Shown one piece after another: positions 41,101 through 44,100 of a stretch of 64,000 nucleotides of DNA (positions are counted from its first letter, which is position 1; the number at the start of each line of letters is the position of its first letter). The position numbers are program-made. Location: the NCBI RefSeq assembly GCF_022846255.1, contig NZ_AP025682.1; one strand, given 5' to 3'. The stretch is from Escherichia coli. Lineage in GTDB: Bacteria > Pseudomonadota > Gammaproteobacteria > Enterobacterales > Enterobacteriaceae.

Positions 41101-44100
41101 ACATTAACTTTATAATAAGTTTGCCAAAGGTAATTAACAGGACAGGGCTTATAATAATAGTTAGCTTACTGTGTATTAATTTGATGTAATGCATGATGCA
41201 GATACTGAGAAAGCATCTGCATCTTTCGGTGGTGTTATTTGACCAGCTCAGGTGTTACCTGACTCACCGCATTGGTGTAGTAAGGAGCCCCCCAGCCCGG
41301 TTCCGGCCAGAATGCACCATAGCCGTAATCCCACAAGTTATAGGTGGTATTAACCACTTCTCTCAAATGCCACACCTGGATGCCCTGCATATTCACTTCC
41401 AGGAAGTTATACGGGACTTTATTGATAAAGCCAGGTTGTTCACCCTGAATGGTACCGAGGATGGTAACAAAGTGATTACGATAGTTCACTGGATCAAGGA
41501 AGCCGCTTTGTCTGGCGAGCAGTCGGCCCTGATAGTTGGCTTCAATATCAGGCTTCGCATAGCTATCCAACGGTAATACAGCGATTTCTAACAACGTATC
41601 CGTTTTGCCATTGATAACGTTGATAACCTTCCCGCCAAAGCGCGCTTGTTGACCAACATATAACCCCGGCTGGTTATGAACAGCAACAAAACTTTTTTGA
41701 ATATCAGGTTGGTTATTGCCTTTGATATTTTGCGGAATTGAACTACATGCGGCAAGCAAAAATGAAAGGCTGAGGATGAGTGCACCTTTTGTCATGTTCA
41801 TGTTACTATCCTTATCAACAAATATTAAAACCATAATAGATATTTCTTTATAGTTTTCATCTGATTCTGAGGCGATATGCCTGATAGTAACGTAAACCTG
41901 TCTGATGTTTATATCTCTTCTGTTTAGTTGAGTTCAGTTAATTTTTGGGCGTGGCATGAGTATCCATTGTTCCATAATCTATATTCAGAGGTTTTTAATC
42001 TTTTCGTGTCTAATATTATTTATCTGATTAAGTATTGATTGTGTCTTTTGCGGAAGTGGTGTCGAGCTTATCGTTTCAATGTTATTAATAAGACTTACAA
42101 GTTGAGCCTCAACTTTGAGTAGTCTGCATTTGTATATGTGGTGTTCGTATGGCACGCATTAATTTGTTGGCGTTGTTGCGCTAAATCAAATTGTTCAGAG
42201 GTGTATCCATTCTCCAGAGAATGGGGCATTAATGGGGTGTTGTTCTTCCCGGTTATCACAAGGCCACTTCGGTGTGTCTGGCGTTTTAACATTATCGGTA
42301 TTTGTTGTGCAGTTATAAATATCACCGTTATATGTATTTATTACACCTGGGGTAAAGTCAATTGACATAACATTCCTTATTCATCATTTGTTTTATGCTA
42401 AGATTTTTAAATTGGATAATTAGAACAGGAATGGATTTTCTTCTACATACAGTAAATATAATGCGTCATATCTTCCTGATATAATTACCTTTGACTTCTC
42501 TTTTATTTCCATCTGGTAATATTTGAGTGCAAAAAAAGGCAATAATCATATCGCAAAAGAAAACGTTAACAACTATCGAAAATGCTCGTTTTAAAAAGGT
42601 ATGATGTTCTCTGATAGTGTGTGAAGTGATATTTTTGTGATGTTTTAGATATGTAATAATAAAATAGGTTAACGTATGTTGAAATTATTTATTGTGTAAA
42701 CCACTGATAAATCATAATCCAGTACATCTTTAAACTGCTGCACTGTATCGCTGATAACTAAGCAGCTCACTGATACACCATGCTGGACGCGATAATTGGA
42801 ATCTCACGCAGGGAGTACTGTGTAAATAGCAAAATCGCCTGATACGCTACGACTGTCAGGCCTACAAATAACATACAATTCATCGAATTATCATAACGTT
42901 GTAGGTCGGATAAAACGCGCCAGCGTCGCATCCGACATAAATAAAGCGCATTTTTCTAACAACCTGTGGGGGAATATAGCCGCTTTATTTCAGGCGATTA
43001 CCCGCCTCATCAACCACTTTCTCGCCATCTTCCTTGGTGAACGCGCCTTTTTGCGCATCTGGCAGAATTTCCAGCACGACTTCTGAAGGGCGGCACAGGC
43101 GAGTTCCCAGCGGCGTCACCACAATCGGGCGATTAATCAGAATCGGGTGCTGAAGCATAAAGTCGATTAACTGATCGTGAGTAAATTTATCTTCTGCAAG
43201 GCCCAGTTCCTCATACGGCTCGACGTTTTTACGTAGCAGCGCGCGTACGGTAATCCCCATATCGGCAATGAGTTTTACCAGCTCATCGCGCGTCGGTGGT
43301 GTTTCCAGATAATAGATAATGGTCGGTTCTGTACCGCTGTTGCGGATCATCTCCAGCGTATTACGTGACGTACCGCAGGCCGGGTTGTGATAAATGGTAA
43401 TGTTGCTCATATCAGTATCTCATTACGATGTGAAAGAGAGGTGTAGCGCCAGCGCCACCAGAGTTACAAACCAAAGCGGACAAGTCAAAAACACATATGG
43501 TTTAACGAATATGTAAGTGTAGAGAAAGGTGTAGGTGTGAATTAAGCGTTGGGCATTCATTTGAAAGGAGGTCTGAATCAGGACGTAAAAAAACCGACTT
43601 CGCGTCGGTTTTTTTACTGTTCAGCCCTGAGTTGGTGGCTCTGGCTGGAGTGAGATAGCCATCATCTAACGCATCAATGCTAATACCATACTGAAACTAT
43701 TGCAAGGACATGCTGGTTTTATAACCCGCAAGTACTGTATGATTATCCAGTTGGTTCTGAGACATTTTCACTCTGGCAATGCGCATAAACGCTTTCAAAG
43801 TCCTGGTCTGAAGTACGGGTGGTGCCGTTAACTGATGCTCTGGCCGGAGTGAGATAGTCGTCATCTAACAATGAGACATGCGCCGTGACAGGCAATGGAT
43901 GAGTAAGCGGATGCATTCTCACTCCATCGCATGGAGAAAACGGGTGATTGATAAAGCAATCATCGTTCTTGGGGCGTTAATTGCGCTGCTGGAACTGATC
44001 CGCTTTCTGCTTCAGCTTCTGAACTGATAGCGGAAACGTAGCTAAGGGCTAAGAGCACACTACTCTTAGCCCTTTAACATTTAACGCATTGTCACGAACT

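Follow-up and report, generated by a model that had tools for sequence, protein, structure and literature searches.

The dinQ-agrAB locus of Escherichia coli K-12 is the best characterized relative of the locus examined here (PMC3567139, PMC5066626). Its toxin gene, dinQ, has a published LexA operator with a heterology index of 4.83; agrA is transcribed from a mapped start site; and the dinQ leader is matched at 30 of 31 positions by agrB and at 25 of 31 by agrA (PMC3567139). AgrA neither binds nor represses dinQ mRNA in K-12, and only AgrB is a functional antitoxin (PMC5066626). According to T1TAdb, AgrA can lie between DinQ and AgrB and is present only in some strains (PMC8594479). In this study, we analyzed the corresponding dinQ/agr locus in a 64,000-nucleotide stretch of E. 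coli DNA (contig NZ_AP025682.1 of RefSeq assembly GCF_022846255.1), hereafter the window, which carries one agr gene.

Control of a similar kind is found in tisB-istR1, whose antitoxin RNA, IstR-1, blocks the ribosome standby site and triggers RNase III cleavage. As in dinQ, a LexA-controlled toxin is encoded by an inert primary mRNA that is activated by 5' processing, and a divergent, constitutive small RNA (sRNA) pairs upstream of the ribosome-binding region (PMC3567139). However, the two systems have unrelated sequences and occupy different chromosomal sites, and Agr acts by re-closing a hairpin at the Shine-Dalgarno (SD) sequence. Closer to the window are the single-agr dinQ/dql loci of E. 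albertii, Citrobacter and other Enterobacterales, which likewise consist of one toxin and one upstream divergent Agr (PMC5066626, PMC8594479).

The window locus is very likely a dinQ/agr type I toxin-antitoxin locus of E. coli, arranged as is usual in phylogroup B2, for example in strains E2348/69 and ATCC 11775. Loss of an agr copy independently of the neighboring ars deletion, and predicted cognate pairing of the copy that was kept, belong to the same joint best explanation and are held with the same good confidence. The closest relatives are B2-type strains: FDAARGOS_144 is 99.9% identical over the arsC-gor interval, E2348/69 shows 100% identity in the promoter segment and 99.4% across 3.2 kb, and the dinQ leader of ATCC 11775 is the same as that of the window. 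The locus shares with K-12 dinQ-agrAB the DinQ peptide, the LexA 20-mer, the leader elements and their positions, a divergent Agr, and the gor and ars neighbors. It differs in having one agr, with the downstream flank of agrB and the body and promoter of agrA; in carrying another 9-nt specificity allele in the leader, which is matched by an AgrA-like RNA; and in the deletion of arsR and arsB. It is thus an unexceptional representative of an established family, with an arrangement often found in nature, and the feature itself is already known; Rfam, NCBIfam and RefSeq each recognize parts of it.

The toxin and antitoxin genes of the window

The dinQ coding sequence occupies 43944..44027 on the plus strand, starts with GTG, and comprises 27 codons plus a stop that specify the membrane peptide MIDKAIIVLGALIALLELIRFLLQLLN. 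It scores 54 bits against the NCBIfam equivalog NF041472 (toxin_DinQ; cut-off 30). The peptide is identical to K-12 DinQ, and near-identical genomes annotate it under the K-12 accession WP_001295215.1. Both this 27-codon open reading frame (ORF) and a LexA box had been noted in the original prediction, which was made from the sequence alone, and both are present.

Support for the LexA box comes from a different source than the one first proposed. The CTGT-N8-CCAG pattern does match at 43735-43750 (CTGTATGATTATCCAG), but five such matches occur in the window against 1.2 expected, and the bare pattern was rejected as stand-alone evidence because this enrichment is too small. Instead, the 20-mer TACTGTATGATTATCCAGTT (43734..43753, plus strand) aligns exactly with the published K-12 operator, and by this identity the window is predicted to have a LexA operator overlapping the dinQ promoter, i.e., the inferred -10 hexamer TATGAT (43738-43743, plus strand) and +1. 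The latter is placed at 43750 (plus strand) from the numbering of Kristiansen 2016 (SD G184-G187, Agr site G88-A119; PMC5066626). With the known elements at their published positions, the primary transcript would be about 330 nt long (43750..44080, plus strand). A perfect 12-nt inverted repeat at 44044..44074 forms a hairpin common to the converging dinQ and gor genes and is a putative dinQ terminator, in a position that fits the published one (PMC3567139).

A single Agr antisense sRNA gene of 85 nt lies at 43585..43669 on the minus strand. It matches the Rfam family RF02891 (AgrB) over its full length with 91.5 bits (E=4.5e-16; gathering score 40), and the match is unique within the 64-kb window. 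The gene is upstream of dinQ, divergent from it and non-overlapping, and has its own rho-independent terminator, a hairpin at 43585..43617 formed by a perfect 14-nt inverted repeat (GTAAAAAAACCGAC / GTCGGTTTTTTTAC) that coincides with the Rfam structure line. A putative promoter read from the sequence (43677..43705, minus strand) consists of a -35 hexamer TTGCAA (43705-43700), a 17-nt spacer and a -10 hexamer TAGCAT (43682-43677), and would direct transcription from 43669 on the minus strand. The alignment shows no difference from the sequence upstream of K-12 agrA as far as the -35 hexamer. A consensus scan for promoters and terminators missed both promoters (agr and dinQ) as well as the Agr terminator; with 8/12, the hexamers fall short of the scan threshold of 9/12, and the promoter positions therefore rest on K-12 identity and published mapping.

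In K-12, two Rfam AgrB matches are found, at 2284-2367 and 2515-2598 of the K-12 locus (L001), with 108 and 106 bits. The distal copy, which adjoins arsR, differs from the K-12 leader at 1 of 32 positions and the proximal copy, which adjoins dinQ, at 7, in agreement with the published match counts, and with the AgrA position given in T1TAdb, if distal is agrB and proximal is agrA. The two-copy layout with its spacer of about 147 bp is not that of the window, which has one match and lacks a 231-bp unit. Thus, the claim that one agr is present here against two in K-12 holds. Among 5,426 complete E. coli genomes, 3,842 have the two-copy spacer of the K-12 type, about 4-5% have exactly the form of the window, and about 14% have a single agr overall.

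The antisense relationship is visible in the DNA as a direct repeat at 43638-43670 and 43837-43869, in which 30 of 33 nt are identical and the copies are spaced 199 bp apart. The original prediction was right about two copies and put their length at about 41 bp, somewhat more than the 33 nt found. Their placement was correct as well: the dinQ 5' leader contains one copy, at transcript positions 88-119, and the antisense segment at the 5' end of the Agr gene is formed by the other, upstream one.

All leader elements defined by Kristiansen 2016 (PMC5066626) are at their published positions in the window, with no indels relative to K-12. On the plus strand these are sequence 1 (U16-C28, 43765-43777), the U44 processing site (43793), the Agr target (G88-A119, 43837-43868), sequence 3 (U167-U178, 43916-43927) and the SD, or sequence 4 (A182-G187, 43931-43936). 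The Agr target contains sequence 2 (G94-G106, 43843-43855) and a variable stretch of 9 nt (transcript 105-113, 43854-43862). RNAfold reproduced the 1:2 and 3:SD pairings for the +1 RNA of the window, and restored the SD hairpin of the +44 RNA when positions 88-119 were blocked.

The mechanism has been established in K-12 (PMC3567139, PMC5066626), and the conserved sequence suggests that it also applies to the window. LexA would repress dinQ. The primary +1 mRNA would be translationally inert, with sequence 1 paired to sequence 2 and sequence 3 occluding the SD. Removal of the first 43 nt would yield the +44 RNA, in which sequence 2 captures sequence 3, the SD is freed and the 27-amino acid inner-membrane DinQ peptide is made. 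The divergent, constitutive Agr of about 85 nt would pair through its 5' 32-34 nt or so with leader positions 88-119 and sequester sequence 2, whereupon the SD hairpin would re-form and translation would be blocked.

The 5' antisense segment of Agr (43634..43669, minus strand) is complementary to leader 43837-43868, as indicated by the direct repeat and by RNAduplex, and includes a variable specificity segment at 43655-43663 that reads ATAGCCATC on the plus strand. At the DNA level, Agr and leader 88-119 are identical at 29 of 32 positions; in the RNA duplex, the three differences become one C.A mismatch and two G.U pairs. The Agr 5' end thus has the roughly 31-34 nt of complementarity to the dinQ 5' untranslated region (UTR) that characterizes the family. 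The window leader has the allele ATAGTCGTC, and the K-12 leader has AGAGTTCTT. RNAduplex gave -57.6 kcal/mol for the window Agr with its own leader. For K-12, it gave -58.2 kcal/mol for AgrB with dinQ (one C.A mismatch) versus -42.7 kcal/mol for AgrA with dinQ (three mismatches, four G.U pairs). The retained Agr is thus the predicted cognate antitoxin of the window's dinQ. With a cognate copy retained, the number of functional antitoxin genes would stay at one, as in K-12. The suggestion that a missing agr changes antitoxin dosage accordingly finds little support: K-12 has one functional antitoxin, AgrB, and the window Agr is predicted to pair as strongly.

The variable 9 nt begin at the edge of sequence 2, and in the published model Agr is their sole partner, save for the terminal pair of position 106. 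Having no other partner, they can vary provided that Agr follows. The C.A mismatch is located at leader position 96 (window 43845 / 43646) and occurs in every Escherichia Agr:dinQ pair examined; its A belongs to an internal stem of Agr (CCAGCC/GGCUGG), and the Citrobacter pair has no mismatch there.

Origin of the single agr copy

Alignments and BLAST revealed two separate differences between the window and K-12, a 1,686-bp ars deletion and the absence of one 231-bp agr tandem unit. The former corresponds to K-12 L001 486-2171 and takes in the greater part of arsB, the whole of arsR and a further 38 bp upstream of it. Its joint is at window 43471/43474, with 42987-43471 matching L001 1-485 and 43474-43685 matching L001 2172-2383 in BLAST. 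A 49-nt remnant of the arsB 3' end (43423..43471, minus strand) stops at this joint. Beyond it, a retained segment of 111 bp (43474..43584), colinear with K-12 L001 2172-2283, runs from the ars promoter/operator region to the Agr terminator; it corresponds to K-12 agrB-flanking DNA and separates the ars deletion from agr. In both alignments, the 231-bp unit is missing as a clean gap within the agr region.

The composition of the remaining agr copy suggests how the unit was lost. The 35-nt flank to the left of the terminator core is identical at 30-33 of 35 positions to distal-type flanks and at 12-13 of 35 to proximal-type flanks, whereas everything from the terminator loop and T-run through the body and antisense segment to the promoter is of the proximal (agrA) type. 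As judged from these segments, the window agr is a chimera of the K-12 agrB downstream flank with the agrA body and promoter. A distal-type flank joined to a proximal-type body points to unequal crossing-over between paralogues, and the terminator hairpin is the probable site of the exchange that removed the second unit. The loss would have been a 231-bp unequal crossover, or slippage, between the tandem paralogues in a shared terminator arm, GTAAAAAAACCGACTT, separate from the arsR-arsB deletion. Beyond the agr promoter, the two K-12 tandem units have only weak similarity in the alignment.

The polarity of this change was examined with E. albertii. Its flank matches proximal-type flanks at 19/35 (O157) and 20/35 (SCPM-O-B-8794) positions, with P of about 1e-3 to 3e-4, and distal-type flanks at 8-9/35, which is the chance level. 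E. albertii has the same 199-bp repeat spacing as the window and the same leader allele, ATAGTCGTC, there paired with an Agr carrying ATAGTCATC. It differs in that the DNA to the left of its Agr terminator is non-homologous to the window flank (8-11/35) and in that no match to the K-12 ars operon was found upstream of its agr. These comparisons suggest that the proximal copy is probably ancestral, that the two-copy state arose within E. coli, and that the window represents a secondary 231-bp loss.

Several other explanations were considered. The original prediction attributed the missing agr to the arsR-arsB deletion, and the two differences from K-12 are indeed within 300 bp of one another. 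Such an event is possible in principle and real in the lineage of SCPM-O-B-8794 (L011 1944-2709), where a different ars deletion (K-12 L001 620-2396) removed arsR, most of arsB and the distal agr and ends in the inter-agr spacer; it is not what happened in the window. There, the deletion ends at 43474, and the 111 bp of colinear DNA before the Agr terminator indicate that it did not reach agr; the missing unit lies inside the agr region; and CAU16175, O111:H8 8B, 2013C-3277, 4FM and JNEC-KY175, whose arsRBC operon is intact, share the single-agr layout. By subtraction, roughly 500 genomes combine a single agr with an intact ars operon. The ars-deletion junction of the window is present in 1,071/5,426 complete genomes, including those of sequence type 131 (ST131) strain EC958 and of E2348/69, and looks like a marker of the B2 lineage. 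Removal of the second agr by the ars deletion is therefore regarded as highly improbable. Even less credible is an assembly artefact in which a tandem repeat was collapsed. Metagenome assemblies do appear to collapse the tandem, since in 11 contigs a leader of the K-12 type is accompanied by the proximal, non-cognate copy alone, a combination virtually absent from complete genomes. However, the layout of the window recurs at 99-99.9% identity in the complete genomes of E2348/69, FDAARGOS_144, FDAARGOS_1257 and A13, and 232 genomes are at least 99% identical over the whole 670-bp arsC-gor interval.

The retained copy could also be a degenerate, AgrA-like decoy that leaves DinQ without an effective RNA antitoxin. 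Its 36-nt antisense segment matches that of K-12 AgrA, which does not repress K-12 dinQ (PMC5066626), at 35/36 positions. Yet the leader allele of the window, not that of K-12, is the one that restores predicted pairing (-57.6 vs -42.7 kcal/mol), and the same covariation was seen in every intact complete-genome locus examined, so that a decoy is improbable. The strongest alternative, though still unlikely, is that a single agr is the ancestral state of this lineage and that other E. coli lineages gained their second copy later by duplication. Among the phylogroups, B2 branches early, and in the matches listed, one Rfam AgrB match was obtained for each dinQ/dql locus of E. albertii, two Citrobacter, Serratia, Pantoea and Photorhabdus. 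On the other hand, the flank of the window agr is of the type found at the distal copy in two-copy genomes, whereas the single agr of E. albertii has a homologue of the proximal-type flank, and to build a two-copy locus from a single copy with a distal flank would require an imported proximal-type flank. Moreover, two-copy relatives with the leader allele of the window exist; the closest are HR12-1, KK05-19 and E69, in which the proximal copy is cognate.

Some observations weigh against secondary loss of a unit with retention of a functional cognate Agr. The crossover interval (about 16 nt, GTAAAAAAACCGACTT) is based on few lineage-specific informative sites, and the E. albertii and proximal-type flanks have modest homology (19-20/35). 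Among the matches listed, all relatives sampled outside E. coli are single-agr, in a sample that was taken without E. fergusonii, E. marmotae and the cryptic clades; this would allow an ancestral single copy for B2. In the minimum free energy structure from RNAfold, the SD of the window +44 RNA is paired with positions 89-92 and not open, and the K-12 +44 RNA folds differently from that of the window, such that the model based on selective 2'-hydroxyl acylation analyzed by primer extension (SHAPE) was reproduced only in part. Finally, all window-specific claims are sequence-based, including those on expression, binding and the phenotype of the allele pair.

Allele variation and promoterless loci in E. 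coli

The agr and leader repeats were compared among the loci L001, L006, L010, L034-L037, L041, L042, L044 and L047. All 22 of the intact complete-genome loci have exactly one cognate agr copy, with predicted duplex energies of -51 to -62 kcal/mol, and in two-copy loci the other copy pairs poorly (-41 to -46 kcal/mol). The identity of the cognate copy varies: it is the distal one in K-12, PEC1021 and 200177, and the proximal one in HR12-1, KK05-19, E69, H9, O157 Sakai, EC21, MS21-1 and XH988. A scan of metagenomes yielded 70 contigs with the locus (L048-L117). The 11 contigs with a K-12-type leader and a single non-cognate agr, as well as several contigs with 199-bp 'deletions' in which arsR is intact, were set aside as probable short-read assembly collapses, the first combination being found almost never in complete genomes. 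Metagenome evidence was therefore limited to two-copy contigs, 24/26 of which have exactly one cognate copy (13 distal, 11 proximal).

At least four leader alleles, AGAGTTCTT, ATAGTCGTC, AATGCCATT and AATGCCCAC, occur in E. coli. Among the 5,426 complete genomes, about 1,682 (about 31%) have the K-12-type leader, about 421 the window type and about 2,350-2,460 a leader of the AAT class, and about 820 (about 15%) have no intact leader. The cognate copy is distal in K-12-like and AATGCCCAC strains, and is the proximal or single copy in the other classes sampled. The two-copy spacer is kept by 1,671 of the roughly 1,682 genomes with the K-12-type leader, as would be expected if the distal copy, being the antitoxin, cannot be lost.

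The approximately 820 genomes without an intact leader also lack the promoter segment. In all five genomes sampled from this group (EC958, SSGNw2, M70, AH21C082 and OZ038879), the cause is a deletion of 199 bp whose ends coincide with the agr and leader repeats, with BLAST segments that overlap by the 33-nt repeat. This deletion was located at L007 1695-1860 in ST131 EC958 and at L004 2675-2840 in SSGNw2, and its ends are equivalent to the window repeats 43638-43670 / 43837-43869. It removes the agr and dinQ promoters, the LexA box and the first 87 or so leader nt. What remains is a hybrid repeat, ATAGCCCAC, joined to the Agr terminator, and a dinQ ORF that is intact and promoterless. A different alteration was observed in the enterotoxigenic E. 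coli (ETEC) strain L7_E1373 (L005 3258-4904), in which an element of the insertion sequence family IS200/IS605, with a tnpB/InsQ gene and a frameshifted tnpA, lies between the proximal agr and dinQ, and dinQ is annotated as a 22-amino acid product.

These patterns lead us to lean, with limited confidence, toward the view that the dinQ leader and the agr genes are interchangeable specificity alleles kept matched by concerted evolution. Toxin and antitoxin RNAs are read from opposite strands, so their complementary segments are direct repeats in the DNA, and gene conversion between the agr and leader repeats would maintain complementarity. If this is true, the 'degenerate' AgrA of K-12 would be the ancestral antitoxin, still at work in many lineages; only loci with a cognate proximal copy would tolerate unequal crossover; and crossover between the agr repeat and the leader repeat would have yielded the promoterless dead locus of about 15% of complete genomes, including ST131. 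A literature search found no description of lineage-specific cognate switching or of the ST131-type deletion, which is not proof that they are unpublished.

Genomic setting and implications

In the window, the genes around the locus are slp (minus), arsC (minus), the intergenic interval, gor (minus), rlmJ (minus) and prlC (plus), which is the reverse of the usual MG1655 orientation and gives the synteny arsC-agr-dinQ-gor-rlmJ-prlC. The arsC-gor interval spans 670 bp (43411-44080) and was matched in 5,422/5,426 complete genomes. An intact arsC ORF of 141 amino acids (42985..43410, minus strand), annotated as arsC in near-identical genomes, persists without arsR and arsB; in front of it are the 49-nt remnant of arsB and the upstream portion of the ars promoter/operator region. 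In HR12-1 (L006 1-2462) and KK05-19 (L037 1-1134), an operon of the arsR-arsD-arsA type is found beside agr instead of arsRBC, which indicates that the ars side of the interval is structurally variable too. A hypothetical-protein ORF of 55 amino acids at 43697-43864 (minus strand), antisense to the dinQ promoter and leader, corresponds to WP_001297979.1 of several RefSeq genomes (e.g., HR12-1 and KK05-19); overlapping regulatory RNA sequence, it is probably an annotation artefact.

Elsewhere in the window, Rfam matched the shuA/chuA 5'-UTR thermoregulator (37407-37438, plus strand, 60.1 bits), which fits a chuA-positive phylogroup. It also matched GadY (146.7 bits), ES205 (105.3 bits) and a naRNA4/REP-like hairpin that lies directly downstream of arsC and scores below threshold; in that order, these are at 21771-21884, 27664-27735 and 42905-42937, all on the minus strand.

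The findings have a methodological side, in that short-read assembly of metagenomes apparently collapses these repeats, which can mimic copy-number variants. For annotation, the only Agr of B2 strains resembles the K-12 AgrA known as 'non-functional', yet it should be counted as the cognate antitoxin; the K-12 agr nomenclature is not transferable by sequence similarity or by position. For epidemiology, about 820/5,426 complete genomes, including ST131 EC958, are without the dinQ and agr promoters, and should therefore lack SOS-inducible DinQ. For the biology of the family, the natural allele series provides ready-made specificity swaps with which the pairing needs of Agr could be tested, and it would explain why agrA persists.

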